Shown piece by piece: positions 1 to 46,565 of a stretch of DNA of 64,000 bases. The notes under the pieces were generated by a model. The model searched no databases. It worked only from the letters and a program-made list of their open reading frames with translations, and had not been told where the DNA came from. Origin of the DNA: an uncultured Candidatus Actinomarina sp. (lineage in GTDB: Bacteria > Actinomycetota > Acidimicrobiia > Actinomarinales > Actinomarinaceae); contig CACFIX010000003.1 in NCBI GenBank assembly GCA_902566515.1, forward strand, positions 3,889 to 67,888, in the 5' to 3' direction. Each line of letters opens with the position of its first letter. Position 1 is the first letter of the stretch. Both the position numbers and the translations under genes were made by a program.

Positions 1-3000
1 AAATTTATTCTCAGGAATTGTTGTAGTAGTGGTACAACTAAGTGTCAATAAAGTTGATGTTTCCCAGTTACCATCAACGGCTATTGTAGAAGCATCGCTT
101 GTTGCATCAATTATTCTCCATTGGATATTTTGTCCTTCAGAAATTTCGATAGTCTTTGATGTGTTGTCACCCGCTGGAATGATTAATGTCTCATATCTGG
201 CAAACGTGCCATTATCAACTTTGTATTCAAGTAAGTATGATTTCTGTGAGCTGGAAAGATTAGTTACTTTGATAATTGATAGAGCTTTATTATTCTCACA
301 TGTTCCAAGTGTATGAATTATCTGTTGATTTGTAGTGATGTCACAGTTAACTGGTGCAGTATCAGTCAGAGTTTTGTAATCATTATCAGTCAAATTAGTA
401 GGCTTATATCTCCATCTTATTTGGGTGCCTTTTGTAACATTTATTAAATCACTAAGATGTGTTGTATTAGCTTGAATTAATACAGTCTTTTCATTAGTCC
501 AGCTATTTCCATCAAAAGAGTATGAGTAAGTAACAGTTTGGTTTGTTGTTGTTGGGTTAGAGATTTTTACCTGAGCAAATGGTTGGTCTTCACTACAAAT
601 AAATGTGTTTGTGGCTGTTAATGGGTTACCTACAGTTTCGCAATTAGTGACCTTATAAACCAATCCACTATTACTCCAATTTGTTGTTCCAAATGGAGCA
701 TATTGAAATTCAACATATGGATCAACTAATGTATATTCAACGTTTTTAGAATTGCCTGCTGAAATTGCAGTTGTAGTTAAAGTCTTCCAACTATCAGTTT
801 GTAAATATCTGTATTGTACAGTAACGCTTCCATCCACTGATGATGTATTGTTTAATGTCAAGGTAACTTTTGTGTTACTAACTTGATTACTATTTAAAGT
901 TGATGCATCAGCACAAACGGTCTGTGTCTGTAAGCTAAATACTGGTGTACACTGATTGGTCTTTGCCAGTGAAGGAATAAGAGAATCATTACTAAAATCT
1001 GTGTCCGTTGAAGCGACATACTGCCATCTTATAGTCTCTCCCTGCTGGATTGGCCATTGAAAATCGAAATTCTGTCCACCTGCAATAGGAGTTGAAGGGA
1101 ATTTTGTTTCCCAGTTGCCATTATTAATTTGAATCTGAACTTGGTAATACTGGGTTGTTGAACCATTGTTTGTAATTGTTAATTTAGAGTATTGTTCTCC
1201 ATCAACACAAGTACCTAAAGTATGAACGTGCGATGAAGATTGGAAACATTGAGCTAAATATCCTGGATGAGTATCGTTTGTCCAATCTCCAGCAAAATCA
1301 TTTGATGCAAGTGATGCTCTAAATCTCCAATCAACATAGCCTCCACTAGATAATGCAGGTGCATTAAATCCTTTTGAAGTTCCTGCAGCAATACTTTCAA
1401 CACTTAATGTTGTATATGATGACCAGATATTATTTGTTTCTGATGATTTTGTTCTGTACTGCACCTCTACATATACAGTATTATTTGTTGATGATGGGTT
1501 ATTAATTGTAAATGTTCCGATTCTCTGACCGTCAGCACATGAATCAAATGCATGTGAATAAGTAATTTGAGTAGTTACTAATGAATCACAATCAATTGCT
1601 GGTTTATCATCAGTTAAAACATCGCTTGCGCTTGAAATTGCAGCAGAAGTACTTGCATATTTGTATTTCCACTTAACAACTGATCCGTTTGTAATATTGT
1701 TCTGGGTAAATACTTTTGGTGACGTTGTTATGACTTTCTGACTAGTTGCATGGTTGTTCCAATTAGCTCCACCATCATAACTTATCCATACATCGACATA
1801 AACATCTACAAATCCATCATTTGTCAATGTCAATGTTGATGATGCTTTTCTGTCAACACATGAACCAATAGTAACGTTGTGTGAAATGCTTCCATCACAT
1901 AGCACTGACAGTGGTCCATTAGGTGTTCCAGAAGTAAATGATTTATTAGCAAATGCATCTGTGCTTAGAGAATCTTTGAATCTCCATTGAATTGTTGATC
2001 CCGAACCAACTTCTACAGAGATAGATTGCTCATTACTATTTGTATGTAGGGATGTATAGTAATTTGCTGTCTGTCCTGCTTTAGGATTTGTCCAAGCTCC
2101 ACCGTCTATTGAATACTCAACTAAGAAATATACAGGAGCACCAGTGCTTGGCTTATTTAAATAATAGAATACGGAATCTCTTTTACCACTTTGACAAGCA
2201 TCTAATGCAACTCTCCACTCAATGTCGCCAGAACAGTTAACAGGTCCTTTTGTTTCGCTAACAATGTAGTCAATTCCTGTAAAAGCTGATGTGGTATTAG
2301 TATTTGAAATCTTGTACCTAATAGTAAAGTACTCACCCTCAGACAAGTATTTAGTTTGGGTGTTGGTGTTAGAAGCTACCAATCCAAAATTGTTTGTTAA
2401 AGAAACCCAGTTAGATGGACTTTGCTCAAGTGAGTACTCAATTAAATAAAATTTATCAGATGAACTGTTATTTACCGTTGTAACAGTTGCAGTTTTTGTT
2501 CCGTTAGAGTTACATGTTGTTGGGATAGTTATAGAGACGTCATCACCAGATAAACATGTAATAGTCATTGTGCTTGATTCCGAATAATCAGTGGAGTACG
2601 TTACGTTATCTTTAGAAGTCTTATATCTCCACTTAATAGTGTTACCATTTGAAAGATTTGTTTTCTCAATTGTTGCTTGGCTATTTGGTCCAACAATAAT
2701 TGTTCCTGCTGAAGTATATGCTTCTCCATTAACGCTTACTTCAACTTGGAAATAAACATCTGACGTTGCTGCAGCACCATTCTTAGCATAGAAGTATGCA
2801 TCTTTATTCCCATCTCTACAGGAACCTTGTGCGATCTCAAAACCTGGGTCGATAATACTACAATTAACTGTTGCACTCTGAACAGGTGATTTAGGAGTAG
2901 CGACAGCTATAAGGTTTAGATCATTCGATACAGAATATCTCCACTCAATATATTTTCCTGATGGTACAGATTTTGTAAATGCAGTAGATGTCGTATTTGC

Positions 3001-6000
3001 ATTTAATAAGAAGTCATCATCGACAGTTGTATAAACACTTTCTCCTTGGATTTTGTATTGAATTTTGTAATAAAGATTTGTACCAGTATTGTTCTGGATT
3101 ACATAACTAGATAGTGCCTCACCATTAGTATCACACTCACCAATTGCTACTGTCTCAATAGTGTCGAATGTACAATCTGAGACTGCACTTTCCGTTAACT
3201 CAACATAGACAACTCCTGATGGCGTAGCTACTTGTGTGTGTGGGTAATACTTCCATCTAATTGTTTGACCACTAGGTACAGCAATGGTTTTTTGCTCTGT
3301 AGCTCCAGGCTGCACTTCTTCCACTATAGTTGTCCAGTTAGAACCACCATCTAATGTGTATTGAATATGAAAGAAAGCATTTGCATTTGATGATATTGGA
3401 TTTGTAAAACTGAATGTAGATTGCTGTGCTCCTCCAACACAGTTACCTAAACTTGCTTCTGCAGTACCTGCTACAACTGGACATTCTACAAGATCTGACT
3501 GAACTATTGATGCTACTGTTGCATAAGCAGCTGTATAGTTGTTACTGATATTGGTAGCAGTAACTCTCCAGTAAACACGTTTTGTATGAGGTACATCTAC
3601 TATGACTTCTTGAAAACCTGTTGGGGCAACCTCAACATTGCCCTCTACAACAGTGAAGTTGACATTGTCAAAAGATCTCTCAACTTTGAAATATAAAGTA
3701 GCAAATGTTTCATTATTTGTAAGCCTTACAGTTGATGCTTTTACACCTGCATTACATGTACCAAGTGTCTGAGAAACAGTAAAGTCTTTTACACAGTTAA
3801 CAAATGATGCAGTCTGGTCGTATGTCCAGTTACCGGCAAAAGTATCGGTGTATGACCACTCATATCGCCAAATTATTTTCTGTCCCTCTGAAACATTTAT
3901 AGTGTCACCTGTAACATAGGCTGCACCGTTTGCAGGCAAAAGATCTCCCATTAATGTTGTATTGACCCACGTTCCAGCAGATAAATCTTCACTAGTAGTT
4001 GTATTAATGATTTTGTATTGTACATTTACATACGCCGCTGAAGTTGATGATGTAGTGTTAACAACAGTCATATTTGGTTGTTGCACATTGTTTGTTGTAC
4101 ATACAGGAGTATTAGGTGTAAATGAAACTGTGTTAAATGGACAATCTACAGTAAGTGTGTCTGAGTATTTTAATTCTGCAGTATTTAGTGTTGATGTGCT
4201 TTTACTAATTCTATATCTAACTTGAATAGTTGCTGAGTGAGGAACAGTAATATCTAACTGTAACTGAGCATCATTACCGCCCGTCACAGTTTCCTGTGCC
4301 CTATACACTATCCAATCACTGTCAGTACTTCTCTTATACTCAATCTTAAAATATGTAGTATCTGTTGAATTCACGTCCAAAGTTACTGTTGGTGTAGCAG
4401 AACCATTTCCACAGGAACCTAAAGTAAGATCTACAACACCACCGGAACAACCACAGTCAACAGTCTCACTTGCATCGACAGTTTCCCAATCTTGACCAAC
4501 AAAGTCACCACCATTAGTAGTATCTTTTATTCTCCACGTAATTGTATTTCCGTCTGGTACGAATACTGTCTGCGATGAGTCTGAGGCCCCCGCCGCAACC
4601 GATATGTCGTAGGCCGACTCAATATTTGGATTAGAGTACTGCCATGTTAGACCACCATCCAATGAATACATAACCTTGTAATACGTTGTATAGTTTTCGT
4701 TATTAGTAATAGTTAATGTTGAGTTTGCACCACTATCACTACACACACACTCAGTTACAGTCTGCGAATATGTGGAATCAGGATCGCAGTCCACAGAGAT
4801 ATTAGTAGTATTTTCATACACTATTGTGCTGAAATTCGTTGAGAGAGTGCCATCATTATAATTCTGAGTACTTGTCGGCATTCTTGTATAAAGACCATTT
4901 TTATTTGTTGAACCTATGTGGTCAAAATAACTACTAATCTTGCTGAAATCTCTAATGTAACCCCATTGAACCTGTATTACTGTTGTGTTAGGTAACGTAG
5001 CAGATGTAGGAAGCTCAAACGTTGTGGAGTTATTCAGGTTAACTTTTGTATGATTCGAATACGTCGATCCACCGTTGGTCGAGTACCTGTAAATTAATGT
5101 TGCTGCTTCATAAGGATCAGTATGAGAGATAGTAGTATCAGTAAATGTAAACTGGACTTTTCCTCTATTCTCCTGACACTGTTGTTGAGTAGACACAAGC
5201 GTAACAGGCTCAATATCGTTAGATTCACAACCTAGATTTGCCGCAACATCCATGGTTGTCCATGACAAGTTGTTTAAGGCTGCATGATCGTGGTTCTGCG
5301 AATTTGAGTTGTAGTAACGATATCGAATTTTGTAAGCATGTGAGGAGTCAACAAAATGATATGCAGACCAATTAGCATCACTTTGGGTATACGTACCAAC
5401 GTTTATATATCCAGAGTGGCTTGGGTATGCGGAATTGTAATAAGTTTGGCTGAAATAATAAGTACCACTTGACCAATTTTCATTATTTCCATATCCATAA
5501 AATATCCACGGTCCAAATGGATTCCATGTTTGGCCATCATGGGATATCTGAATATCAAAATGTAGATAATTGTAACTGTTACCAGTACTTTGTATTTTTT
5601 GTGCTTTTAGTTTCAACAAATCTGGGCCAAGTGAGGCACAGCCATCATACGATGTTGATAACGTAAAATAATCATCTAAATTACACGAGACTGTGTATGG
5701 TCCTTTTGAAGTGTATGTAGTGTATGCAGAAGTTGCTGTGAGCTCTGTTCTTAATTCAAATGTTACTGAATCTCCATGTTGAAAATCTATAGGTATTGTT
5801 ACGTAATCATTAGATGATGCATTTACAGTAATACTACCTGTATGTGGCCAGGAAGATCCTCCATCTTCTGAAGCTCTATACTGAAGCTGTATTGAAGTAG
5901 TTTCATCATTATCAATTAAGACTTTAAATCGCTGATTTCCTCCATAACATGTTGCATCTGTATAAACCTGTAACACATCACCAATAGTTGCATTTACATC

Positions 6001-9000
6001 ACAGTCAACAAGAATTGTATTATTCACTGTTGTGAATGTACCTGAAGTAACTGGTGCAGTTGGAGAATGTCTGTATTTCAGAGCAATAGTCTGACCCTGT
6101 GTCATTGTTGGAGTAAAAGTAAATGAAACTGTTTCACCTGGTAACACAGATTTGTATACATCCGTACCAAATGCATCAAGCCAGTTGTCGCCTTGACCTA
6201 CTATTGAGTAATCTACATCATAATGTGCCATTAAATAACCAGTATTAGTAATTGTTACTACAGGTTTGTTACCTCCAGAGACACAGTCTCCTAATGCAAA
6301 AACTAACTGTGCACCAGTACTTGGACAGTTAACTGTTAGAACTGGTGTGGTATATGCAGTCGCATTCGAAAAGTCTCCAGTATCTGGTGAGAGATGTAGT
6401 TTATATTGAATGGTTTGTCCATGATTGAGCTGTGCAGTTTCTTGAAGTAACGTATTAGCATTTAATTGATAATTTGTGTAAACCGTTGTCCAGTCATTAG
6501 CTCCATCAACTTTCTTTTCTAACTTCAGATAATAAATAGCCGAACCTGAATCTGTTTTAATACTAAAAATGGTGTCTGCAAAACCAGTATTAACATCATT
6601 TTGACAAGTGCCTTGTGCTAAAAGATTAGAAACTACAGTACCATTAACGGTCACATCAGTATTCCCACTTCCCTCAATAAAATCTGTTAGATCAACATCA
6701 CATTCTGCAGTCCTGTCAGCTGTTGACATATTCTGTGAACCAAGTTCTATGTAACTAGCATTAGCTAAATCTGATTGTGAAAATGCTCTTTTATATCTGA
6801 GTTTTACTACAGAACCGTCAGCAAGCCTTGTTCCAATCGTGAAATATCTGTAAGAGTAACTTGTCATTTCAATATAAGTTCCAGTAGTAGTTGTTGCAGA
6901 CCAACCATTATTATTAGTTGCTGATGGAGGAGAATGGATTGCAGAAGAGTTGTGTCTCCTGTAGAAAATATTTGCAGTTGACCAGTTTTGTCCATCATCA
7001 ACGGAGTACTCAAAAATCCACCACTGCTTGGAGTAAGCTTCGTTGTTTCCTCCTGAATTGTTATAAAATTGATTTGAAACCCAAATCTGATCGTTTATGC
7101 AGGAATTTGTTTGTGTATTATCAGGAAAGAGATACTGGTAATTACTAGTTGGTAGTGTTTCATATTGATTACAGTTAATTCCGTAATAACCAGAAGTAAT
7201 ATCTGCGGATGACCTAGCTTGACTGACATAGACATAAGGGAACGGGCCTGATGACCAAGTAACATTCTCTACATATGAAACTTGATATCTCCAATGTGCA
7301 AAATATTGCGAACCAACATCTGACGTATATGTTTTTTGAAAACCAGGTCTTGAGTTTGCATCGTATGTGTAGGCTGTGTTTGCTGGAATTGCATAAACGA
7401 CTGCTGCTGGTGAATTATCATAATATGAGTCACTGTTATAACTGGTGGTATTAAGTTGATCTTCTGATGGTTGAATACGAACATAAATAGTTACAGATTC
7501 GTTATTTTGTATAGTAAGCGTTGAAGTTTTTCCTGTGTTAGTACAGGCACTCATTGAATACACTCCAGTAGTTGAAGGATTACAATTTGTTTGTACTGTT
7601 GAAGTGTAATTAAAGTTATGTAATGTTGTATTGGTCCAATCTGGATTTTGTGTAAAAGAGCCCTGAACTTTCCAATAAATATAACTGTTGACACCATATG
7701 TATATGTCTTTGTTGTTGTGTGTGAGTAGGTAGTATTTGCAGCAATGGAGAATAACTGGATATCATCATCTTCGTAATTAGCTGTTGTTGTTTGACTGTT
7801 GCTTGCACCAACTTTTGAAGGTACCGCTCTAAAATAAATTGTCTGAGATTCGTTATTAGTAATTGTAAGTGTTGTAGTTTGACCAGATGCTGAACATGAA
7901 GTTACTGTTTGTGAAACACTAAAATCAGCCTGACAATTTATTGCCTGGGTATAGATGCCCCATGCTGCTGTAGTATCAGGATCTGTTTCATCAATTCTAA
8001 ATCTAAAATATGCAGTTGATCCAGAGGATAATGTAGATGGAGAGTCATACGTTAACGTTACTCCATCGTTAAATGCTACCCCATCAGCCAGAGTTGACCA
8101 CGTTGAACCATTTGTTGAGTAATCAACATCAATAAAACCATTAAAGCTATCGTTTGCTGCATCTCTTTGTTTAATCGTAAATCTTGCAATAGCACTTCCC
8201 TGAGCATCGCAAACCTGTGATATGGTTTTAGTCGTACTGCTATAGTTGTTGCTTGAATTATTAGAGGAACCACCACTACCTACGTAGAAACAGTCAACCT
8301 CTGAGTCAGTAAGCGTTAGATAGGAATCACCAGATTTAACATAGGATCCATAACTTGAATTAGACGTATAAGATCCGTTAACACCGTTCGTTAAAAGATT
8401 ATAAGTAGAATATAAATTGGAATAAATCCATCTTATTTCTGGTGTAACACCATGCCACATTTGAAAAGTGAATGTTTGTGTTGAACCAGCTGAAACCGAT
8501 CTGTAAGTATCAATCCAACTAAAGGTTCCACTCTGACCACTAGAATTTATATTTCCTCGAATGTGAACTTGAGCTGTTTGGTTACCTGTATTTTGCACTG
8601 TCATTGTGTAGGTCTTATATGGTTGATTAGTTGTACATGAAGGTGAATTTAGACTTGCAGTCATACTGTACACAGGACAGTTAATAGTTACACTAGACGA
8701 TTCTGTCCAGTTCGTACCAGATGGATTGCTAGCGCCAACAATATATCTAAAAGTAACGACAGAGTTGTGTGCTACTGCTGACGTTATCTCGTAAGTCTCT
8801 GGAGAGCCAACTGCAACTTGTTCACCATCCTTTAATGCCTGCCAGGCACTACTTCCTACCTTGTACTCAACATCAAAAAATACCGTCGTGTTACCAGTTG
8901 CTGTAAGAGTAATTGTAGGCTTTGCTGTACCATCACCTAAACATGTTCCATTTGCAGTTGCAACAGAACCCGTCGCTAACGTATAGTTTCCACATCCACT

Positions 9001-9335
9001 GACAGTTAATTGTTGACCTACGTTGTAGGAAGTTGCAGAATTAGATGGATTAGATGAGTTATAGCGCATACGGAATTGTATTGTTCGACCGTCATATTCC
9101 TGATTTGCCGAAATCGTTGTATTAGCGCCAGGGGTCACCGACTGCCCGTCAACAAGATTTGTAAACGAACCACCATCTATGCTGACATCTACATCAAAGT
9201 ATTGTGTGCTGGATTTGTTGTTTGTGATTAACAGTTGTGGTGTAGCAAAACCATTGGAACATGCTGTAAGAGTTGCACTAAATGTTGGTGAAAATGGATC
9301 AAATGCATTAGGTCCACAAGAGGCACCATCAGAGT
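1..9335 (-). repeat. Protein-level tandem array of ~27 divergent Cys-bracketed modules (97-155 aa each) inside the giant CDS
   Basis: Module boundaries of the form ..V(N/D)C.. lie at roughly 35, 345, 645, 955, 1245, 1590, 1895, 2235, 2555, 2865, 3175, 3480, 3795, 4140, 4450, 4790, 5225, 5690, 6005, 6325, 6700, 7170, 7595, 7935, 8290, 8680, 8995 and 9320. Each is followed 12-14 aa later by a second Cys, often as (T/S)LG(T/S/N)C. Verified examples are VNCDITTNQQIIHTLGTC, TNCETVGNPLTATNTFIC, AQCFQSSSHVHTLGTC and VNCSGDIEWRVALDAC. There is a mid-module Y-x-(V/I)-(E/Q)-Y-x-x-(D/N)G-x-x-(W/F) motif (LLEYKVDNGTF, YSYSFDGNSW). There is also a late G-x-(T/K)-I-x-W-(R/K)-(Y/F/I) motif (GQNIQWRII, GTQIRWRYK, GETIRWQ, GSVVKWKYK, GSTIQWR, GNTIKWRYK, GKYIEWRYS, GQTIRWK, GQKIIWRY). 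Copies are not identical at the nucleotide level. Confidence 0.8.
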
Positions 9336-10362
9336 TGTTTGTTAAGAAAGAGCTTCCTTTTTGTGTAACGCTATAGTTATTTGTTCCATTTCTTACAATC
9401 TCAAAACGCATACCGTTTGTGTCATCAACAATAAATCGAATCTCACCTTGGGGTGTTTTATAAGAAAATGCAGAAAGTACAGTACTTGCTCCAGAAAACG
9501 CGCTTGTTTGTGGATCAATTGAAGATGAGTTTGATGGATTATCGATATCAAATCTGTGTATTTTGTTATTAATTGCATCATAGGTAACTAGCTCATATCC
9601 GTCCCAGTCCCCTACATAGGCATAGTCAGCAGCATTAATTGGACTAACAAAAGCTGGATCTGGAAAGGTAGTTGTAGTACCACTTGATACGTTATAGATC
9701 ATGTTTGAGTTTGGTCGTGCTATATCTGATCCATTTCCATCAGAGTCAGTATCAAATGCACCCTGTGAGAAATAAATTCTATCTATGCCATCTTTTGAGA
9801 CATACTCACCAGATGAGAAACCATAGTGACCACCACCACCTGGTAGCTGATAGAAATCCAACTGTCCAATAGTTCCATATGAACCCATATTTTTTAAGTG
9901 TGTGAGTGAACCATTAGTATTAATTTGGAAAAGATCAGTACCGTTTGCTGAAGATGTAATTGTGACATACATCTTTCCATCAGGTGACATGGCTAAACCA
10001 TTAATACCTTTTACTCCAGTTATGCTTGTTCCGCCTACCGTTAATCCAGATAAACTGACTTGGGTCTCAGCTAAGTTAACTGTTGATGTTGATGTGGCAA
10101 CATATTGAGAGATTGTAAAAAAGTTGTCCGTAAACTCCCAATCAAGTTTATAGAAATACGCTCTCTCTGCAGCGTCGTTACATTCCCATATCGTATTTGC
10201 ATATGCTTCTTCTTGAGGTGTGGCCCAAGAAGAGATGAATACTAATGCAAATAAAAGGACATGAAGTGTTGTTGTTGTGATTTTTTTATAGTTGATGGCG
10301 TGAAAGAACGTCTTAACCTTAAGACAACACAAAATAAAATTATATTTATTTATCACACACAT
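1..10362 (-). CDS. Giant secreted repeat-module surface protein, 5' portion (>=3454 codons; continues past the left window edge)
   Basis: The minus-strand frame (plus-strand triplets phased from position 1) is open from the upstream TGA at 10393-10395 down to position 1. I hand-translated 1-660 and 9361-10200, plus spot checks at 1201-1260, 2161-2220 and 5281-5340, and all read as clean protein. It is missing from the ORF track only because it has no stop inside the window; a stop in this frame would have produced a listed ORF starting near 10362. Start candidates are TTG 10365, ATG 10362, GTG 10356 and TTG 10332. The N-terminus ...YKKITTTTLHVLLFALVFISSWATPQEEAYA looks like a Sec signal peptide. 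Confidence 0.9.
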   Translation of the reverse strand, partial: MCVINKYNFILCCLKVKTFFHAINYKKITTTTLHVLLFALVFISSWATPQEEAYANTIWECNDAAERAYFYKLDWEFTDNFFTISQYVATSTSTVNLAETQVSLSGLTVGGTSITGVKGINGLAMSPDGKMYVTITSSANGTDLFQINTNGSLTHLKNMGSYGTIGQLDFYQLPGGGGHYGFSSGEYVSKDGIDRIYFSQGAFDTDSDGNGSDIARPNSNMIYNVSSGTTTTFPDPAFVSPINAADYAYVGDWDGYELVTYDAINNKIHRFDIDNPSNSSSIDPQTSAFSGASTVLSAFSYKTPQGEIRFIVDDTNGMRFEIVRNGTNNYSVTQKGSSFLTNNSDGASCGPNAFDPFSPTFSATLTACSNGFATPQLLITNNKSSTQYFDVDVSIDGGSFTNLVDGQSVTPGANTTISANQEYDGRTIQFRMRYNSSNPSNSATSYNVGQQLTVSGCGNYTLATGSVATANGTCLGDGTAKPTITLTATGNTTVFFDVEYKVGSSAWQALKDGEQVAVGSPETYEITSAVAHNSVVTFRYIVGASNPSGTNWTESSSVTINCPVYSMTASLNSPSCTTNQPYKTYTMTVQNTGNQTAQVHIRGNINSSGQSGTFSWIDTYRSVSAGSTQTFTFQMWHGVTPEIRWIYSNLYSTYNLLTNGVNGSYTSNSSYGSYVKSGDSYLTLTDSEVDCFYVGSGGSSNNSSNNYSSTTKTISQVCDAQGSAIARFTIKQRDAANDSFNGFIDVDYSTNGSTWSTLADGVAFNDGVTLTYDSPSTLSSGSTAYFRFRIDETDPDTTAAWGIYTQAINCQADFSVSQTVTSCSASGQTTTLTITNNESQTIYFRAVPSKVGASNSQTTTANYEDDDIQLFSIAANTTYSHTTTKTYTYGVNSYIYWKVQGSFTQNPDWTNTTLHNFNYTSTVQTNCNPSTTGVYSMSACTNTGKTSTLTIQNNESVTIYVRIQPSEDQLNTTSYNSDSYYDNSPAAVVYAIPANTAYTYDANSRPGFQKTYTSDVGSQYFAHWRYQVSYVENVTWSSGPFPYVYVSQARSSADITSGYYGINCNQYETLPTSNYQYLFPDNTQTNSCINDQIWVSNQFYNNSGGNNEAYSKQWWIFEYSVDDGQNWSTANIFYRRHNSSAIHSPPSATNNNGWSATTTTGTYIEMTSYSYRYFTIGTRLADGSVVKLRYKRAFSQSDLANASYIELGSQNMSTADRTAECDVDLTDFIEGSGNTDVTVNGTVVSNLLAQGTCQNDVNTGFADTIFSIKTDSGSAIYYLKLEKKVDGANDWTTVYTNYQLNANTLLQETAQLNHGQTIQYKLHLSPDTGDFSNATAYTTPVLTVNCPSTGAQLVFALGDCVSGGNKPVVTITNTGYLMAHYDVDYSIVGQGDNWLDAFGTDVYKSVLPGETVSFTFTPTMTQGQTIALKYRHSPTAPVTSGTFTTVNNTILVDCDVNATIGDVLQVYTDATCYGGNQRFKVLIDNDETTSIQLQYRASEDGGSSWPHTGSITVNASSNDYVTIPIDFQHGDSVTFELRTELTATSAYTTYTSKGPYTVSCNLDDYFTLSTSYDGCASLGPDLLKLKAQKIQSTGNSYNYLHFDIQISHDGQTWNPFGPWIFYGYGNNENWSSGTYYFSQTYYNSAYPSHSGYINVGTYTQSDANWSAYHFVDSSHAYKIRYRYYNSNSQNHDHAALNNLSWTTMDVAANLGCESNDIEPVTLVSTQQQCQENRGKVQFTFTDTTISHTDPYEAATLIYRYSTNGGSTYSNHTKVNLNNSTTFELPTSATLPNTTVIQVQWGYIRDFSKISSYFDHIGSTNKNGLYTRMPTSTQNYNDGTLSTNFSTIVYENTTNISVDCDPDSTYSQTVTECVCSDSGANSTLTITNNENYTTYYKVMYSLDGGLTWQYSNPNIESAYDISVAAGASDSSQTVFVPDGNTITWRIKDTTNGGDFVGQDWETVDASETVDCGCSGGVVDLTLGSCGNGSATPTVTLDVNSTDTTYFKIEYKRSTDSDWIVYRAQETVTGGNDAQLQLDITVPHSATIQVRYRISKSTSTLNTAELKYSDTLTVDCPFNTVSFTPNTPVCTTNNVQQPNMTVVNTTSSTSAAYVNVQYKIINTTTSEDLSAGTWVNTTLMGDLLPANGAAYVTGDTINVSEGQKIIWRYEWSYTDTFAGNWTYDQTASFVNCVKDFTVSQTLGTCNAGVKASTVRLTNNETFATLYFKVERSFDNVNFTVVEGNVEVAPTGFQEVIVDVPHTKRVYWRVTATNISNNYTAAYATVASIVQSDLVECPVVAGTAEASLGNCVGGAQQSTFSFTNPISSNANAFFHIQYTLDGGSNWTTIVEEVQPGATEQKTIAVPSGQTIRWKYYPHTQVATPSGVVYVELTESAVSDCTFDTIETVAIGECDTNGEALSSYVIQNNTGTNLYYKIQYKIQGESVYTTVDDDFLLNANTTSTAFTKSVPSGKYIEWRYSVSNDLNLIAVATPKSPVQSATVNCSIIDPGFEIAQGSCRDGNKDAYFYAKNGAAATSDVYFQVEVSVNGEAYTSAGTIIVGPNSQATIEKTNLSNGNTIKWRYKTSKDNVTYSTDYSESSTMTITCLSGDDVSITIPTTCNSNGTKTATVTTVNNSSSDKFYLIEYSLEQSPSNWVSLTNNFGLVASNTNTQTKYLSEGEYFTIRYKISNTNTTSAFTGIDYIVSETKGPVNCSGDIEWRVALDACQSGKRDSVFYYLNKPSTGAPVYFLVEYSIDGGAWTNPKAGQTANYYTSLHTNSNEQSISVEVGSGSTIQWRFKDSLSTDAFANKSFTSGTPNGPLSVLCDGSISHNVTIGSCVDRKASSTLTLTNDGFVDVYVDVWISYDGGANWNNHATSQKVITTSPKVFTQNNITNGSVVKWKYKYASTSAAISSASDVLTDDKPAIDCDSLVTTQITYSHAFDSCADGQRIGTFTINNPSSTNNTVYVEVQYRTKSSETNNIWSSYTTLSVESIAAGTSKGFNAPALSSGGYVDWRFRASLASNDFAGDWTNDTHPGYLAQCFQSSSHVHTLGTCVDGEQYSKLTITNNGSTTQYYQVQIQINNGNWETKFPSTPIAGGQNFDFQWPIQQGETIRWQYVASTDTDFSNDSLIPSLAKTNQCTPVFSLQTQTVCADASTLNSNQVSNTKVTLTLNNTSSVDGSVTVQYRYLQTDSWKTLTTTAISAGNSKNVEYTLVDPYVEFQYAPFGTTNWSNSGLVYKVTNCETVGNPLTATNTFICSEDQPFAQVKISNPTTTNQTVTYSYSFDGNSWTNEKTVLIQANTTHLSDLINVTKGTQIRWRYKPTNLTDNDYKTLTDTAPVNCDITTNQQIIHTLGTCENNKALSIIKVTNLSSSQKSYLLEYKVDNGTFARYETLIIPAGDNTSKTIEISEGQNIQWRIIDATSDASTIAVDGNWETSTLLTLSCTTTTTIPENKF

Positions 10363-10449
10363 CAACTTTTTTTTAATTAGATTTAATTCTAATCAACTTA
10401 AGTTAAGTTTAACTGGAATTGATTTAAAGTAAATGTTTTTTTAAAAAAA

Positions 10450-11070
10450 TTAGTACTGTTTTAGTATGTTTTCTACTAAATTTTCGGAGGTTTCAAGAAA
10501 AAACTCCTCTGAATATCTATTAAACAGTTCGTGATCGCCAATATTTAAGGCATATTCGAACATCGCTCCCCTAAAAGCTGTAGCAACATTTACAGCAATT
10601 TCATCTGCTCTGTCCTGATATTGCTCAGAATTACTCAATAAAGCTGTAATTGCTTGTACAGGATCTTGGTCTAGCCATTTATCAACATTGACTAAATTAA
10701 ACATTTGTACAACAATAACTTTTCCTGCATATCCGAGGCTTACAAGGTTCTCAGCATATGTAACTGGAATCTGCTTTAATTTCTCAATCACGCTTAAAGA
10801 TTCGTCCGCAAGTGTGGCACCCATGTTTGCCGCTACATCCATTCTGGAATGAACAATTGCAGAAAATACATCTTCCATTCTGTCAGGAAAATGATTGTAT
10901 GCTGTAGCAGGTGATACACCAGCTTCTTTTGCAATTTGAGTTAAAGTGACTTCTCTAATATCTCCAACTTCATTAATTACATCAACAGCTGTATCAATAA
11001 GTTTTGTCCTATTGAGGTCAAAAATATCTTGCTGCCTACGTGCTCTGCCGTCTTGTTGGATATCAGTCAT
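10450..11070 (-). CDS. TetR/AcrR family transcriptional regulator
   Basis: 206 aa ORF. The N-terminal HTH reads TLTQIAKEAGVSPATAYNHFPDRMEDVF, typical of TetR. It lies directly upstream of and co-directional with the giant gene. Confidence 0.8.
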   Translation of the reverse strand: MTDIQQDGRARRQQDIFDLNRTKLIDTAVDVINEVGDIREVTLTQIAKEAGVSPATAYNHFPDRMEDVFSAIVHSRMDVAANMGATLADESLSVIEKLKQIPVTYAENLVSLGYAGKVIVVQMFNLVNVDKWLDQDPVQAITALLSNSEQYQDRADEIAVNVATAFRGAMFEYALNIGDHELFNRYSEEFFLETSENLVENILKQY

Positions 11071-13755: not shown

Positions 13756-14757
13756 TTATGAAGAAATTGTTAATGCTGAAACTGCTTCTTGATAAACATC
13801 ACAATAGTCAATCATATCAGCTACCCATTTGCGATCTTGCTCTGGAAGATAGTCGAGCTTGTAATAGTTAGTCCACTTTCCCCCATAATAATAAACAAAA
13901 ACATCTGCTAGATTCTCGTCATCACCATATCTTTGATGTGCAAGTTCTCTAAAGGTAGTTCCACCTTGCAAAATACATCCTCTCAAGACTAAATATGAAT
14001 AGGCATGCGCAGCTTCGTGAATAAGAATATCTTTTAATTTTCCAGATTGTATCCCTCTATCTGATATCCAAATTGTCATAGCCCAATTATTCCCATAATT
14101 TCCATCAGCACCATAACCTACTGGATCAAATACTCCATACACACATCTATTGAATAAAGCTTCACCATAAGGATGGCATCCATTAAGAACATCTACTTCG
14201 GAAGTTAATATTGTTCTCAGAGGATCTGGGAGTTGATATATTGCAAGCTGGATTCTGAGATTAGAATCTTCATTCCCTTCAAATCCAGGATATGAAACAT
14301 CTTCGAGGACAGTTTTGGAATTAAGTTTGTAAGATGGCTCGGCTATGTTTATAGCTGGAGCTTCAATTAAAGAATAAAGAAAATTAGTCACGTCATTTTT
14401 AATACCCGTATTACTTCCATCTCTTCTTTCATGTAGATTAATCAAAACAGCATTCTCATCAGGTATTGTTAAACTACATATTGTAGTTAAGCCTTTAGTA
14501 AGCTCAATTAATGCCTCTTCAAAACTAAATGGACCAAATCTATTACATTCAGAATCATAAAGTATAAATGCGACATTGTATGGATCATCTGAATTTACTA
14601 CATTAGAAGAAAGTTTGTATGAAGGTTCAGCTATTTCAATATTTGGAGATTCTATTCTCAGAACTGAAAATAAATTTATATTTAAAAAATAGGTAATCAA
14701 CCAAATGGCTATGTTGATTGAAAGAAAAGCAAAAAGCACTACTTTAAAAGTTTTCAC
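13756..14757 (-). CDS. Membrane-anchored hypothetical protein with HExxH motif and an internal duplicated IAEPSYKL element
   Basis: 333 aa. It has an N-terminal TM helix (VVLFAFLSINIAIWLITYFL), the zinc-protease-like motif ILIHEAAHAYS, and the duplicated peptide IEIAEPSYKLSSNVV / INIAEPSYKLNSKTV. Confidence 0.5.
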   Translation of the reverse strand: MKTFKVVLFAFLSINIAIWLITYFLNINLFSVLRIESPNIEIAEPSYKLSSNVVNSDDPYNVAFILYDSECNRFGPFSFEEALIELTKGLTTICSLTIPDENAVLINLHERRDGSNTGIKNDVTNFLYSLIEAPAINIAEPSYKLNSKTVLEDVSYPGFEGNEDSNLRIQLAIYQLPDPLRTILTSEVDVLNGCHPYGEALFNRCVYGVFDPVGYGADGNYGNNWAMTIWISDRGIQSGKLKDILIHEAAHAYSYLVLRGCILQGGTTFRELAHQRYGDDENLADVFVYYYGGKWTNYYKLDYLPEQDRKWVADMIDYCDVYQEAVSALTISS

Positions 14758-16506: not shown

Positions 16507-17484
16507 TTATAAAACGTTTTCACCCATAAATAATGCTGAGACTGAGTCATCAGTAAATATAGATGTTAGTGCATTTGCAATTATTGGAGAAACACTCAAA
16601 GACTCAACATTTCCTAATTTTTCAGGATTTCCATTCTGCAGCAAAGTATCTGTGACGACTATTTTATCTACTGGTGCATCTTGTAATTTTTCTACTGAAC
16701 CCTCAGAAAATATACCGTGCGTAGCTGCAACATTTACAGATAAAGCTCCACGTTCCTTTAAAATTCTTGAAGCGGCCGCGATAGTACCTCCGGTGTCAAT
16801 AATGTCATCTAGTAGGATTGCATGTCTGTCTTCAACTTCACCAATGATCGTGAAAGACTTTACCTCGTTATGTATCTTCGGATCTCTTTTTTTATGTACA
16901 AAACCAACATACGCTTCAAGATGTTTTGCAAATATAGTTGCTCTCTTTACTCCACCTGCATCAGGCGAAATAATAGAAATTGGACCATCAAATCTATCTT
17001 TAAAATATTCAACAAAAAGTGGCATAGCAGTTAAATGGTCGAATGGCTGATCAACAAAACCCTGTATCTGCTGAGTGTGCAAGTCGATAGATACCATTCT
17101 ATCAACACCTGCGGCAACATACATATCGCTTATTAATCTTGCAGATATTGGTTCCCTAGGAAGTGCTTTTTTATCTTGTCTTGAGTAAGGATAGAAAGGA
17201 AGTACAGCTGTGATTCGTTTTGCTGAAGCACGTTTTAAAGCATCTATCATGAGAAGTTGTTCCATAATTGTTCTATTGATATCTCCAGAATGGCTTTGCA
17301 TAACAAAACAGTCTGCACCTCTAACACTCTCACCAAGTCTCAAATAAATCTCACCGCTAGCAAATTCTTTTCTCTCTACTTCTGATAATTCGGTTCCAAG
17401 ATTTGAAGCTACTTGTTGCGCAAGTTCAACATTTGATGAACCCGAAAAAAGAAGCATTTTTTTCTTGCCAGGTTGTTCAATCAT
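16507..17484 (-). CDS. prs: Ribose-phosphate pyrophosphokinase
   Basis: 325 aa. Motifs are DLHTQQIQGFV and the PRPP-binding loop ILLDDIIDTGGT. The glmU-prs arrangement is classic. Confidence 0.92.
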   Translation of the reverse strand: MIEQPGKKKMLLFSGSSNVELAQQVASNLGTELSEVERKEFASGEIYLRLGESVRGADCFVMQSHSGDINRTIMEQLLMIDALKRASAKRITAVLPFYPYSRQDKKALPREPISARLISDMYVAAGVDRMVSIDLHTQQIQGFVDQPFDHLTAMPLFVEYFKDRFDGPISIISPDAGGVKRATIFAKHLEAYVGFVHKKRDPKIHNEVKSFTIIGEVEDRHAILLDDIIDTGGTIAAASRILKERGALSVNVAATHGIFSEGSVEKLQDAPVDKIVVTDTLLQNGNPEKLGNVESLSVSPIIANALTSIFTDDSVSALFMGENVL

Positions 17485-18841
17485 TTTTTTTCTTTCTATC
17501 CATATAGCCTTCTATGTTTTTTTGATCATTTCTTTCAATACCTAAAGCTTTTGAAGGAACATCTTTTGTAATTACAGAACCTGCACCTATCATTGATTCT
17601 TTTCCAATAGTCACTGGAGCAACAAGCATGACATCTGATCCAATAAAAGCCCCATCTTCAATATCTGTTTTATGTTTATTTTTACCGTCATAATTAACTG
17701 TTATTGATCCTGCAGAAAAGTTTACATCTGTTCCTAATTCTGCATCACCTACATACGCAAGATGAGGAATTTTACTTCCTTTACCAATTTTTGATTTTTT
17801 TGTTTCAGCAAATGCTCCAACCTTCACATTCTCTCCTAGTTCCGAACCAGGTCTAATGTGGGCAAAAGGTCCTATTTGACCTCCATTATCAATAATTGAA
17901 TCGTCTACCACTGAATTCAATACTTTTGAACCTTTACCAACTTTTGAATTATTAATTTGAGCATTTGGTCCAATCTCACAATCAGGGCCTATCACTGTTT
18001 CACCTTTTAAATGACTGTTTGCGTAAACTTTTGTACCAGCAGAAATTTTTACAGTTGAATCTATATATGTAGAGGTTGGATCTTGGAAGTAAACACCTTC
18101 GTCCATGAATTGTTGTATTGTTTGCTTTAATAGAGCGTCTTCAACTTCATTTAGTTGGCCCATAGAATTTATTCCTCTTATTGAATCTTCATCTACTTGT
18201 ACTATAACAATATCTTTTTTTTCATTATTTGCAATACCTATTAAGTCAGTTATGTAAAATTCTCCCTGCGCATTAGAGGTATTCAAATTGTTGATTTGCT
18301 CAAGAAGAAATTCTTTTTCAAAACAATATATCCCTGAATTAATTTCATCAACCAACCTCTCTTCTTCTGTGCAGTCTTTTTCCTCAACTATTTTAATTTG
18401 TCCATCTTGTTGAATGACTCTTCCATATCCAAATGGATTAGAGACCTTAGATGTTAGAAAGCCTATTGTTGAACTTGAGTCAGTTACTTTTTTAATTAGA
18501 TTTTTAATATCATTGCTATTGATCATTGGTACATCTCCTGGAAGAACAAGAATATATTCAGATATATCATTAGCAAATTTTTTATCCTCTAACAGGATTG
18601 AAATTGCATGTCCTGTACCTTTTTGCTCCTCTTGGATAACAAAATTAAGTGATTCTGGCAGAGCTTCCATTACTTGTTTAGCTTCATGCCCTACTACAAC
18701 ATATTTAGTATTGATATCCTCAATAACCTCAAGGGCGTATGAAATTAATTTTTTTCCTGAAACAGAATGTAAGACTTTTGGTAAATTGGACTTCATTCTA
18801 GTCCCTTTACCTGCGGCTAATATTACTCCTGATACATTCAT
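17477..18841 (-). CDS. glmU: Bifunctional UDP-N-acetylglucosamine pyrophosphorylase / glucosamine-1-phosphate N-acetyltransferase
   Basis: The N-terminus reads MNVSGVILAAGKGTRMKS, and the C-terminus has left-handed beta-helix hexapeptide repeats. The track ORF start (18928) reads through a tRNA gene, so I trimmed it to the internal ATG at 18841. Confidence 0.9.
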   Translation of the reverse strand: MNVSGVILAAGKGTRMKSNLPKVLHSVSGKKLISYALEVIEDINTKYVVVGHEAKQVMEALPESLNFVIQEEQKGTGHAISILLEDKKFANDISEYILVLPGDVPMINSNDIKNLIKKVTDSSSTIGFLTSKVSNPFGYGRVIQQDGQIKIVEEKDCTEEERLVDEINSGIYCFEKEFLLEQINNLNTSNAQGEFYITDLIGIANNEKKDIVIVQVDEDSIRGINSMGQLNEVEDALLKQTIQQFMDEGVYFQDPTSTYIDSTVKISAGTKVYANSHLKGETVIGPDCEIGPNAQINNSKVGKGSKVLNSVVDDSIIDNGGQIGPFAHIRPGSELGENVKVGAFAETKKSKIGKGSKIPHLAYVGDAELGTDVNFSAGSITVNYDGKNKHKTDIEDGAFIGSDVMLVAPVTIGKESMIGAGSVITKDVPSKALGIERNDQKNIEGYMDRKKKND

Positions 18842-18852
18842 TTCAAAATTGA

Positions 18853-18927
18853 TGGCTGGGGGAGAAGGACTCGAACCCTCAACGATGGGACCAAAACCCA
18901 TTGTGTTGCCAATTACACCATCCCCCA
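18853..18927 (-). tRNA. tRNA-Gln (anticodon UUG), CCA encoded
   Basis: The reverse complement folds as a 75 nt cloverleaf: acceptor TGGGGGA/TCCCCCA (U1-A72), D arm GTGT-AATTGGCA-ACAC, anticodon arm ATGGG-TTTTGGT-CCCAT (anticodon TTG), T arm GAGGG-TTCGAGT-CCTTC, discriminator G, then CCA. Confidence 0.9.
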
Positions 18928-18946
18928 ATTGTTATGCAAATATATT

Positions 18947-22405: not shown

Positions 22406-23806
22406 TTATAAGTCACCAAGCTGTGATGAGATTTCATCAATAATATTTATGTCTTGAGAAAGGACCATTTTTACAAAACCATTTTGCTTTGAAATCCATA
22501 CATTGGTGGAGCCTTTATAAATAACTCCGTTGTACTGTTCAACCACTTCTGTAAATCTTTTTTGGGTATCGCCCCATAAAATAAATGCATCATATATTTC
22601 ATCAAGATCTGCAGCAGTGTCGCCACTTATTTTTACAGTCATTACTAAATTGCCAGATGAATCAACGTAGTCTTTCCATGAACCTCCCCCGATTCCAACT
22701 GCAGCAGTAATTGCAGGGATAGGTCCAATGGTGTCTTGTAGAAGATAAACAAGGTCCAAAGATCCAAGTGTACCTTCATCTATTAACTCAAAATTATTAA
22801 TTTCAACATCAGCAATTTCGATGACATCATATCTTTCATTAGCAAAATACTTTTCAGAGGAATATATCTGTTCAGAGGTAGGGAGGTTTGTTAAGCCAGT
22901 TCTTTTATACTCACCTAGCGCGTCATTTAAAGCTGCCATTTTTCCTTTATTGATAATTTCTCTTGAAAGTATTGGACCATAGGTGTAATACAAATCTGAA
23001 GGTATATAAAAATAATTTGGAAGCTGAACCCTGCAGGAAATATTTGGAATCTGTGCTTGCATAGTTTGACGGTCATATGCATCTAAACTATCAACCCATT
23101 TTGCTTCGACCCACTCAGCTTGAGCCTCCATTAATGCTCTAATTCCTGGATAGTTAGAGAAATCATCTAAGTCATCCATTTCTTGATACCACTCAGATAC
23201 CTCAAAATGCATACCCTGTAAAGAATGGACAAGTTCATGAACTACTACTCTCTGTTCATAAAAATTAAGCTTTTTTTGACCTGATTTTATAGGGACTCTT
23301 AGTGTTTTATCTAATAAGTTGTATGAACCAGCAGAGAAACAACGTTGGAATTCTACTTGTAAATTTAAAAGTTGGTCAGCTGAGAAATCATTTAAACCCC
23401 ACATATTTTCTGAAAGTACAGCTCTTTCCCACTCACCTTCTTCATAATCTTCTTCAAAATCATCTAGAAAAGAAAGAGCATTGTATTCTTGATAATCATT
23501 AAGAGTGTAAAAATCATAGAGAGGTTCTTCGATAAACTCTAAACCTATTCTTCTCTCAATAAATTTCATTAATTCAGCTAATTGATTTTTGATTTCAGTT
23601 GGCGGTTCTTGAATCTCTAATCCAAACTCATCAATTGCAAACGGAGGCTCTTCATAAACAGTTGTTGTTGTAGAGGTAGATGTAGTTGTGGTACTTTCAG
23701 TAGTTGTAGATTCTTCTGCCTGGGTTTCAGAAACAGATTCTTCAGTAGTTCCTGATGAGCAGGATATTAAAATTAGACACAAAAAAGTTAGTAAAAATTT
23801 TCTCAT
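22406..23806 (-). CDS. Lipoprotein with Thr-rich linker and HExxH motif (putative secreted metallopeptidase-like protein)
   Basis: 466 aa. It has the lipobox LILISCSS, the linker ESTTTESTTTTSTSTTTTV, and the motif VVHELVHSLQ. Confidence 0.5.
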   Translation of the reverse strand: MRKFLLTFLCLILISCSSGTTEESVSETQAEESTTTESTTTTSTSTTTTVYEEPPFAIDEFGLEIQEPPTEIKNQLAELMKFIERRIGLEFIEEPLYDFYTLNDYQEYNALSFLDDFEEDYEEGEWERAVLSENMWGLNDFSADQLLNLQVEFQRCFSAGSYNLLDKTLRVPIKSGQKKLNFYEQRVVVHELVHSLQGMHFEVSEWYQEMDDLDDFSNYPGIRALMEAQAEWVEAKWVDSLDAYDRQTMQAQIPNISCRVQLPNYFYIPSDLYYTYGPILSREIINKGKMAALNDALGEYKRTGLTNLPTSEQIYSSEKYFANERYDVIEIADVEINNFELIDEGTLGSLDLVYLLQDTIGPIPAITAAVGIGGGSWKDYVDSSGNLVMTVKISGDTAADLDEIYDAFILWGDTQKRFTEVVEQYNGVIYKGSTNVWISKQNGFVKMVLSQDINIIDEISSQLGDL

Positions 23807-27206: not shown

Positions 27207-27543
27207 GGTGGAGGTGCGGGGAGTCGAACCCCGGTCCTTCCAAGCTATCAAACAGATTCTCCGAGTGCATCCGATGTTTTACTGCTAGGCAAGTCATCGG
27301 AACCTATAACCTAACAGGTTTACCTAAATCTTAAGAGTTAGTCGGTAACCCAACTCAGCATCCCACATTTCGACGCCATTGCTATCCGAGGTGGGAACCC
27401 CGATAGGTGACGAGCAGCTGTTAGGCTGCTAAAGCCAACTTAGGTTTGGCAGTTATATTGTTTTCCTACGTTTTTTACGAGGCCCTAGGACCCTCGACTC
27501 GCTACTGAGAGACTCGCTTCAAAGTCGAAGCCAGTTCACCCCC
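27206..27543 (-). ncRNA. ssrA: tmRNA (ssrA), one-piece
   Basis: On the reverse complement the 5' end is GGGGGTGAACTGGCTTCGAC and the 3' end is GGACCGGGGTTCGACTCCCCGCACCTCCACCA. The acceptor stem has a G3-U70 pair. The tag frame ends ...GCC AAA CCT AAG TTG GCT TTA GCA GCC TAA (..AKPKLALAA stop). Confidence 0.92.
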
Positions 27544-46137: not shown

Positions 46138-46565
46138 ATTAAATACTTGATTGGAAGTATTGATCCATGAATTAAAACTGTAATTACCAAATAATAGAAC
46201 TCGTTTTTTTGAAATTCAGGGTTCCATAAATTAATTAAAAACCAAACAAGAATTGGGATTCCTAAATTAAGTAAGCTAACAGAAATATATTTAACGAACT
46301 CCCTCCATGAGCCATCAAGATATGAAAGTTGAAAAATAATTTTTCTTGATAAAAAATAAGAAACCACTACACCAATTGCAAATGAAAATGTATTAGTTAA
46401 ATAAGTTCTGAGAGGAAAACTAATCATAGTTAAAATTAAAAATTGAAAAATATAATTCAAAAAAAGACCAAATATTAAATTAAATGCTCCAACAATATAT
46501 GTTCTAAATAATTCAGCAAATGAGCTGTCACTTTTTGTGAGTTTGTTAATGAGATTATTCAGCAT
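46104..46565 (-). CDS. GtrA family membrane protein (putative polyprenyl-P-sugar flippase)
   Basis: 153 aa. It has four predicted TM helices and the GtrA-like N-terminal pattern FAELFRTYIVGAFNLIFGLFLNYIF. Confidence 0.7.
   Translation of the reverse strand: MLNNLINKLTKSDSSFAELFRTYIVGAFNLIFGLFLNYIFQFLILTMISFPLRTYLTNTFSFAIGVVVSYFLSRKIIFQLSYLDGSWREFVKYISVSLLNLGIPILVWFLINLWNPEFQKNEFYYLVITVLIHGSILPIKYLIYKFFVFKDSL

Follow-up and report, generated by a model that had tools for sequence, protein, structure and literature searches.

Sortase-anchored fibrillar adhesins of Gram-positive bacteria, exemplified by SasG/Aap, Rib/alpha-C, and the Cna-type MSCRAMMs, share a signal peptide, a distal nonrepeat head, a tandem immunoglobulin (Ig)-like stalk, and a sorting signal served by a cognate sortase. 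In the isopeptide-locked pilins and adhesin domains, which include Spy0128, SpaA, and the Cna_B/FctA folds, a covalent Lys-Asn/Asp link joins the start and the end of an Ig-like domain, such that load bypasses the fold, and the pilus itself is polymerized by a sortase. Isopeptide-stabilized domains are the subject of a survey (PMC12617251), and fibrillar adhesins have been defined as a class by a tandem-domain stalk, attachment to the surface, and at least one adhesive domain (Monzon, Lafita & Bateman 2021; PMC8286594). Here we describe a giant gene at one end of a 64,000-nucleotide stretch of DNA (the whole of which we call the window) from an uncultured Candidatus Actinomarina sp., one of the marine Actinobacteria of low guanine-plus-cytosine (GC) content (assembly GCA_902566515.1, contig CACFIX010000003.1, positions 3,889 to 67,888, forward strand). 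We think it likely that the product is a cell-wall-anchored fibrillar surface protein, in which a head is borne on a stalk of Ig/fn3-like domains, each of them locked by a disulfide.

Set against the definition of the class, the stalk is present as 27 tandem beta-sandwich modules, the anchor is seen in the orthologues at four loci (L006, L001, L004, and L007), and the ligand-binding part may be represented by a conserved nonrepeat head, which matches no known adhesive domain and has a low-confidence model. As in sortase substrates generally, there is a signal peptide, identified by inspection, and five orthologues possess the tail of pentapeptide, hydrophobic segment, and basic residues, which lies beyond the window. 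The architecture is thus that of the known class, and it departs from the described members in four respects: the stalk domain falls outside all named families, the stalk families of Pfam included; the pentapeptide is of an xAxTG (class-E-like) rather than LPXTG type; the host is an ultrasmall, free-living, planktonic cell of ~1.1 Mb, among the smallest free-living cells, and not a host-associated or biofilm organism; and the domains apparently contain one disulfide each instead of isopeptide bonds or metal sites, a design that is probably also new for the class.

Reading frame and layout of the giant protein

Across window positions 1 to 10392, a single frame of the six is open, on the minus strand and with 3,464 codons. 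The gene starts with an ATG at 10362 (-) and continues with no stop up to position 1, placing the C terminus beyond the window; counted from this ATG, the in-window product has 3,454 residues. Judged from its orthologues, the full-length protein is of ~3,660 residues, the complete orthologue at L006 having 3,663. The order of its parts is a signal peptide, a head of ~300 residues, the 27 modules, and then the beginning of a 28th unit. The start codon and signal peptide (residues 1 to 46; 10225..10362, minus strand) were recognized by translation and by eye from a basic n-region, the hydrophobic stretch LHVLLFALVFISS, and a cleavage-like junction between SWA and TPQEEAYA. A P-x-E-x-AYA motif just past the hydrophobic stretch recurs in the distant homologues P0008, P0012, and P0020. 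The all-beta head (residues 47 to 345) occupies 9328..10224 on the same strand and is followed by the stalk of modules M01 to M27 (residues 346 to 3439; 46..9327, minus strand), which was delimited by cysteine periodicity, a hidden Markov model (HMM), and a structural model. Positions 1..45 (-) encode a Thr-rich linker and the first residues of a divergent C-terminal sandwich, the 28th unit; the remaining ~210 residues, including the sorting signal, were taken from the complete C terminus of the L006 orthologue. We found no further module-bearing genes within the window.

Sorting signal and sortase

In the L006 orthologue, M27 is followed by a Thr/Pro linker, the divergent sandwich (FEPLISTSRVC...SDC), an acidic linker, and the terminal segment FAPTG-SNVGRLIILLGSLLMMAGGFIL-SRGYRF, after which comes the stop codon. 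The divergent last sandwich is retained in the distant homologues P0007, P0008, and P0013. Across five orthologues the C termini display FAPTG, YAITG, YAVTG, or YGPTG, a hydrophobic segment of ~17 to 20 residues, and then RRGYR[YF] or SRGYRF; in P0007, a distant homologue, the equivalent place is taken by a canonical LPETG. On this pattern, the C terminus of the orthologues reads as a three-part cell-wall sorting signal of the xAxTG type, and the Ala at its second position is presumably equivalent to that in the LAXTG motif of class E sortases. Further, the next gene in L006 overlaps the stop codon of the giant gene and codes for a 543-residue membrane protein with a Sortase domain (PF04203, E = 2e-30). 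An anchor-type C terminus and an adjacent sortase are seen together in L006, L001, L004, and L007. The pairing of fiber and sortase is conserved more widely, because in P0013, a distant homologue, the sequence continues into a sortase domain. The order of signal peptide, head, modules, C-terminal sandwich, acidic linker, and signal is repeated in P0008 and P0013, and the N-terminally truncated P0007 shows the C-terminal part of the same architecture. Since the orthologues combine a sorting signal with a class-E-like sortase gene placed directly after it, we interpret the product as a sortase-anchored fibrillar surface protein. This agrees with the surface fiber or adhesin proposed when the array was first noticed from the sequence alone (the original prediction); the S-layer-like alternative offered at the same time found no backing, there being no match to SLH or any other S-layer family in Pfam or NCBIfam.

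The sortase of L006 (L006:15424-17055) is unusually long, with an N-terminal membrane segment, a cytoplasmic region, a second membrane segment, and the catalytic domain. Its cytoplasmic region matches the RecA C-terminal domain (PF21096, E = 1e-16); we know of no other sortase that contains a RecA_C-like module. Located 3' of it (L006:17052-19457) are genes for a multipass membrane protein of 518 residues, which weakly resembles an FGLLP-motif membrane protein (E = 8e-12, a score far short of the cutoff), and for a 280-residue Thr-rich secreted protein with a long poly-Thr/Ser tract, both of which may be part of the same surface-assembly operon.

An old array of strongly diverged modules

The in-window protein contains 61 cysteines, 57 of them in the array, where short gaps (12 to 32 residues) alternate with long gaps (84 to 137 residues) 28 times. 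Cutting at the first cysteine of each pair yields 27 complete modules of 99 to 157 residues (297 to 471 nucleotides) at 46-9327 and the start of the 28th unit at 1-45, in close agreement with the ~27 modules of 290 to 470 nucleotides, ending near 9335, that had been predicted. The longer modules predicted between ~4790 and ~8680 correspond to the block M03 to M12 (4798..8688, minus strand), in which modules reach 157 residues through insertions rich in Tyr, Asn, and Trp; the quoted example HAYKIRYRYYNSNSQNHDHA is located in M11. The claim of strong divergence likewise holds, as pairwise identity among the modules is 16 to 29% (~20%), and Tandem Repeats Finder detects no array at the DNA level. 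When HMMs were built from 26 modules and used to score the one omitted, 25 of the 27 obtained 19 to 68 bits, as against a maximum of 11.7 bits for shuffled modules (20 shuffles each). The two most aberrant modules, M07 and M11, which bear large insertions, scored merely 5 to 6 bits. The periodic conservation is thus far above chance.

Each module has two near-invariant cysteines, spaced as C-x11-31-C in all 27. The signature motifs that had been proposed are genuine as consensus features and fall short of being invariant: C-x12-14-C occurs in 18 of the 27 modules, G.TI.WRY in 14 in a relaxed form and in 4 in its strict form, and an LG(T/S)C-like motif in 8. An Asp-box-like S.DG..W pattern, searched as a regular expression, is found in 19 modules; the BNR families of Pfam match 3 of the 27, in each case below threshold. 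The stalk is acidic overall and rich in Thr (14%), Ser (11%), and Asn (8%).

The same 28 units, with the same cysteine spacing, are kept one to one by orthologues at a synonymous divergence of at least 1. The orthologues were obtained from species genomes of GTDB by a pattern scan with modules 13 to 19 (a 744-residue query), which recovered five loci at 74 to 99% identity, all from single-cell genomes or metagenome-assembled genomes of Candidatus Actinomarina/OCS155. The L006 locus runs collinear with the window, at 94% nucleotide identity across 14.3 kb, and includes the complete gene. As orthologues whose flanking genes have diverged to a synonymous rate (dS) of 0.7 to 1.0 keep all 28 units, the array must be old and each module must have its own orthologue. 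The ratio of nonsynonymous to synonymous rates (dN/dS) is below 1 in every module for which it was computed (0.05 to 0.7; for M24 and M26 against L007, dS was not computable), indicating purifying selection. An old, maintained array had indeed been predicted.

Fold and affinities of the module

An AlphaFold2 model of M17, based on the alignment of the 27 modules, has seven strands, a mean predicted local distance difference test score (pLDDT) of 85, and a predicted template modeling score (pTM) of 0.75. Foldseek searches with this model against the PDB and viral models recover generic Ig/fn3-like sandwiches only, at E values of at least 1e-3 and template modeling (TM) scores mostly of 0.4 to 0.6, with a maximum of ~0.6. 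They include the FnIII-like domains of glycoside hydrolase family 3 (GH3) and the Ig-like domains of family 2 (GH2), CsgC, monobodies, and phage fn3 domains; the GH3 FnIII-like domains and the monobodies do not exceed a TM score of 0.54. The predicted fold class is clear, namely a seven-strand Ig/fn3-like sandwich with no close structural relative, and the model bears out the beta-sandwich modules foreseen in the original prediction.

The failure of that prediction to recognize a named domain is also borne out by the searches. Neither the whole protein nor any of the 27 modules has a significant match in Pfam or NCBIfam, and module profiles compared with all PDB sequences give best E values of 0.025 to 0.04, to beta-sandwich domains of unrelated enzymes. 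For the modules, a word-indexed search of 5.8 billion proteins returned just four sequences, all of them fragments of this protein or of near-identical ones. An exhaustive HMMER scan of 1.84 billion cluster representatives recovered 476 proteins at E ≤ 1e-3. Of the best 150, ~60 belong to the family proper, having modules of full length and the cysteine pair; almost all of these ~60 are metagenomic fragments. The rest of the 150 are long fn3-, SprB-, or Ig-like repeat proteins, in which the match is confined to the central 50 to 70 columns and centers on the hairpin 'Y.vEYS.DGG.tW', an Asp-box/BNR-like motif.

These partial matches raise the question of whether the modules are ordinary fn3 (or SprB- or Ig-like) domains, with nothing new at the domain level. 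In favor of this, the module has the seven-strand sandwich fold, and comparison by hhalign of its profile with fn3-, SprB-, and Ig-like units, with the true family members removed, gives probabilities of 94 to 96% over 53 to 80 columns (94.6% over 65 columns for the fn3 units). These targets were preselected by the module's own profile, and the result is to that extent inflated; the segment in common is, moreover, largely the Asp-box hairpin, a motif that reportedly recurs in unrelated beta folds. Among the 149 best hits (E ≤ 1e-3 per stretch), no protein outside the family gives a match that spans 80% or more of the module. No module reaches the gathering score of any Pfam family; the fn3 family PF00041 is absent from the 25 families listed by number of modules matched at E ≤ 1, and SprB (PF13573) matches 1 module of the 27, with E = 0.015. 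The cysteine pattern is also unlike that of SprB and Ig repeats. We therefore doubt the view that these are ordinary members of those families, while granting it a real chance of being right. The profile similarity likely reflects membership of the broad fn3/Ig-like fold class rather than of a named family; it is a remote similarity, and full-length matches to a known family were lacking in all of these searches.

The closest parallels repay a finer comparison. Bacterial repeat proteins with fn3 domains that have an Asp-box (BNR-like) C-C' hairpin resemble the module in the seven-strand sandwich and in the core 'Y.vEYS.DGG.tW ... G..y.~R'. They differ in that the module falls below all Pfam thresholds and in that the examples P0022, P0023, and P0032 have no or one cysteine and lack the module's cysteines at the A-B turn and after strand G. 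The SprB (PF13573) gliding adhesins of Bacteroidota are likewise giant surface proteins with dozens of cysteine-containing beta repeats of ~80 to 100 residues, and the first cysteine and hairpin of the SprB unit align with the second cysteine and 'YSIDGG.tW' hairpin of the module; this alignment is limited to module columns 9 to 67 and to 13 to 16 bits per unit. SprB proteins, which belong to diderm Bacteroidota, are exported by type IX secretion and have a C-terminal sorting domain; the present protein has a sortase signal and an actinobacterial host. A Bacteroidota gliding adhesin of the SprB type, as might be suggested by the low GC content and the Cys-rich repeats, is excluded by the actinobacterial host and the sortase signal. 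We offer the stalk domain as a candidate new family for the domain databases.

Cysteine parity and a bracketing disulfide

The original prediction had the two cysteines of the C-x12-14-C motif closing upon each other in a local disulfide clasp. We counted cysteine parity in four complete or nearly complete proteins (L006, P0008, P0013, and P0007). If the second cysteine of each module pairs with the first cysteine of the next, thereby bracketing a domain, every extracellular cysteine in all four is paired. The local clasp is probably wrong, as it would always leave over two conserved cysteines, the first of the head and the last of the C-terminal sandwich. The terminal domains follow the bracketing scheme in their spacing. 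The head has two bracketing cysteines, at its very start and just past its end, 275 to 288 residues apart; in the window protein, the single cysteine within the head is C61 (codon 10180-10182), and the first array cysteine, C349 (codon 9316-9318), lies 4 residues past the head end. The last sandwich has two cysteines 85 to 86 residues apart, the same distance as separates the second cysteine of an ordinary module from the first of the next. The acidic tail has a C-x5-7-C pair of its own in L006 and P0008, which is absent from P0013 and P0007.

The M17 model places the second cysteine at the A-B turn and the first cysteine of the next module ~6 residues after strand G. In a seven-strand sandwich of the fn3 type, the A-B turn and the region after strand G are both at the C-terminal pole. 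Further, the only extra cysteines of the array fall at exactly the two sites that the bracketing arrangement would juxtapose: at the M13/M14 junction (4447..4749, minus strand), a CVC (C1872/C1874) occupies the second-cysteine site of M13 and a CGC (C1970/C1972) the first-cysteine site of M14, a pattern conserved in L003 to L007 and P0018, including orthologues at ~75% identity. Taking these findings together, we favor with fair confidence one bracketing disulfide per domain over the local clasp. Disulfide formation in exported proteins is known from Actinobacteria. As an observation in its own right, the additional cysteines at the M13/M14 junction may form a second, parallel disulfide there.

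The proposed arrangement parallels the isopeptide-locked domains, in that a covalent intradomain link would join the start and the end of an Ig-like domain and allow load to bypass the fold. It differs from them in the nature of the link, for which the disulfide connectivity is predicted, and in that a single polypeptide takes the place of a sortase-polymerized pilus; the isopeptide families Cna_B, SpaA, and FctA yield no Pfam or NCBIfam match at E ≤ 1. If true, the bracketing disulfides would make this protein a clean example, from nature, of Ig-like domains in which a disulfide lock lets load bypass the fold.

The N-terminal head

The head is the best-conserved part of the gene, with 96 to 98% identity to the orthologues and dN/dS of 0.04 to 0.08. 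Homologues are present in P0008, P0012, P0016, and P0020 at 17 to 26% identity, and a word-index search of the same 5.8 billion proteins returned 10 matches only. No Pfam family matches it, nor does any lectin or glycosidase family among NCBIfam models or PDB sequences. The AlphaFold2 model of the head, computed from a nine-sequence alignment, is all-beta with four-strand repeats, and in Foldseek the matches listed within its top 50 are almost all beta-propellers (TM 0.2 to 0.39), among them fucose lectins (AofleA, FleA, RSL, and PLL), sialidases, and GH43 enzymes. This gives a hint that the head could be propeller-like.

Such matches could point to a tethered device for nutrient capture, the head being a lectin or glycoside hydrolase for dissolved polysaccharide and the stalk serving to widen the capture radius. 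Given the low TM scores and the low confidence of the head model (pLDDT 47), which make it propeller-like at best, and given the lack of any match to the lectin and glycosidase families at the sequence level, we regard this as very unlikely.

Recombination and the variability of the stalk

Variability is unevenly spread along the gene. In comparison with L007, the head and modules M01-M02, M04, M08, M13, and M14 are 90 to 98% identical, M16 to M24 are 57 to 74% identical, and the flanking genes thrC and hom are 88 to 90% identical. Across the orthologues compared, M16 to M24 range from 55 to 74%, as against 88 to 96% for thrC/hom, and M03, M06, M07, and M11 likewise rank with the most divergent modules. 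The synonymous rate itself is mosaic: against L007, it amounts to 0.12 to 0.36 in the head and M01 to M05 and to 1.0 or more in M15 to M27, bracketing the 0.7 to 1.0 of the flanks; along the gene it spans ~0.1 to 2.2, and the pattern obtained with L006 differs from that with L007. Over 46-10224, the comparisons with L004, L006, and L007 thus describe a mosaic, in which, against L007, the stretch from the head to M05 and M13-M14 is far above the background similarity, and M15 to M27 are as divergent as the background or more so. With such a mosaic in dS and a dN/dS below 1 throughout the computed modules, the evidence points to homologous recombination between lineages, and positive selection as the cause of the variable modules was rejected.

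A recombining stalk that diverges much faster than the head and the flanks is a pattern typical of exposed structures under pressure from phages and predators. One could accordingly see in the protein a protective surface brush or spacer, or a variable decoy, directed against phages, the feeding structures of grazers, or other cells and requiring no specific ligand; the strong selection implied by an 11-kb gene in a ~1.1-Mb genome (PMC7771536) would fit this as well. Against it, no diversifying selection is apparent in any computed module, the most strongly conserved part is the head, which suggests a specific function at the tip, and the number of units, 28, is the same from species to species, whereas decoy and brush proteins often vary in length. 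We hence consider a brush or decoy unlikely.

Proposed mechanism and host

For the anchored, disulfide-locked fiber that we prefer, we envisage the following course. The giant protein would be exported by the Sec pathway through its signal peptide, and the class-E-like sortase encoded directly downstream would cut the xAxTG signal and join the protein to peptidoglycan; the window itself includes genes of cell-wall context, namely PBP1 with a PASTA domain and SpoIID/peptidoglycan-binding genes. The 27 sandwiches and the divergent C-terminal one would form a stalk of ~100 nm, assuming ~3.5 to 4 nm per domain, holding the conserved all-beta head off the cell, where it would bind a ligand at the tip. 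Every domain, the head and last sandwich included, would be closed by one disulfide from the cysteine at the A-B turn to that just past the last strand. Tensile load might then run from disulfide to disulfide by way of ~13 residues per module, making the fiber nearly inextensible and resistant to unfolding.

Several points weigh against this proposal. The sorting signal and the sortase lie beyond the window and were read in the orthologues; the LPXTG-anchor models PF00746 and TIGR01167, which are tuned to LPXTG, have no match in the C-terminal 241 residues of the L006 protein or in P0007; and the best NCBIfam match of the sortase, to class E, reaches 126 bits against a cutoff of 160. The head model has a pLDDT of 47 and is unreliable, and the designation of the head as adhesive draws on its place in the architecture, as it has no family match. 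The disulfide connectivity was deduced from parity, the modeled M17 construct having ended short of the first cysteine of the next module; natural single-cysteine variants, being a few anomalous metagenomic fragments that mostly look like sequencing or frameshift artifacts, have no bearing on it. Lastly, a planktonic, free-living, extremely streamlined cell would seem to have no obvious substrate to adhere to.

This last point makes the host of particular interest. Candidatus Actinomarina is abundant in the surface ocean, uncultured, and taken as a model of extreme genome streamlining. Its genomes are of ~1.1 Mb (PMC7771536), of which the giant gene, at ~11 kb, makes up ~1%, and its cell volume is ~0.013 cubic micrometers (PMC3747508), which as a sphere would be ~0.29 micrometers across. 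At its estimated length, the fiber would thus measure about one-third of the cell width. A conserved 11-kb gene in such a cell implies an important surface interaction, be it attachment, capture, or defense, that lies outside the current picture of these organisms. Term searches of the main Actinomarina genome papers (PMC7771536 and PMC3747508) found no mention of the giant gene, and a search of the available literature library found no paper joining Actinomarina and sortase, the matches to "giant" being to viruses or unrelated proteins. We tentatively raise a larger possibility, which we hold to be somewhat improbable: that some of the smallest free-living cells devote ~1% of a 1.1-Mb genome to a ~100-nm tether made of a hitherto unnamed domain family and short-circuited by one disulfide in each domain, as an independent counterpart of the isopeptide solution, whose highly conserved head would recognize a specific partner, for instance a phytoplankton cell, a particle, or a polymer, and permit at least transient attachment, so that these cells would not be wholly free-floating.

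Neighboring genes and further observations in the window

Upstream of the giant gene, 87 bp away, is a gene for a TetR-family regulator (10450..11070, minus strand; PF00440, E = 8e-8). The same order of the two genes is found in L001, L004, L006, and L007, and the TetR protein is a possible regulator of the giant gene.

Elsewhere in the window, a 466-residue open reading frame (ORF) at 22406-23806 (-) combines a lipoprotein-like N terminus (LISCSSG) with a Thr-rich linker and an HExxH motif (VHELVH) and matches nothing in Pfam at E ≤ 1e-5. Its product is possibly a zinc metalloprotease, either secreted or tethered, from a family not yet described. The ORF at 46555-48741 (-), in a region rich in envelope genes, encodes a multipass membrane protein of 728 residues, the C-terminal part of which is large and soluble; it too has no Pfam match at E ≤ 1e-5. 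A 333-residue ORF without a Pfam match (13756-14757, minus strand) lies between hom and a YqeY-like gene.

Two RNA genes bear on the called starts of their neighbors. A transfer RNA gene at 18856-18927 (-) lies inside the 5' end of the glmU ORF called at 17477-18928 (-), with a TTG start at 18928; as the nucleoside triphosphate transferase domain begins at residue 34, the true glmU start is probably downstream of the transfer RNA. Similarly, a transfer-messenger RNA gene (27206-27543, minus strand; RF00023, 155 bits) overlaps by 46 nucleotides at its 3' end the called TTG start (27251) of the flavin adenine dinucleotide-dependent oxidoreductase ORF at 26028-27251, and because of this overlap, the called start of that ORF is probably wrong.

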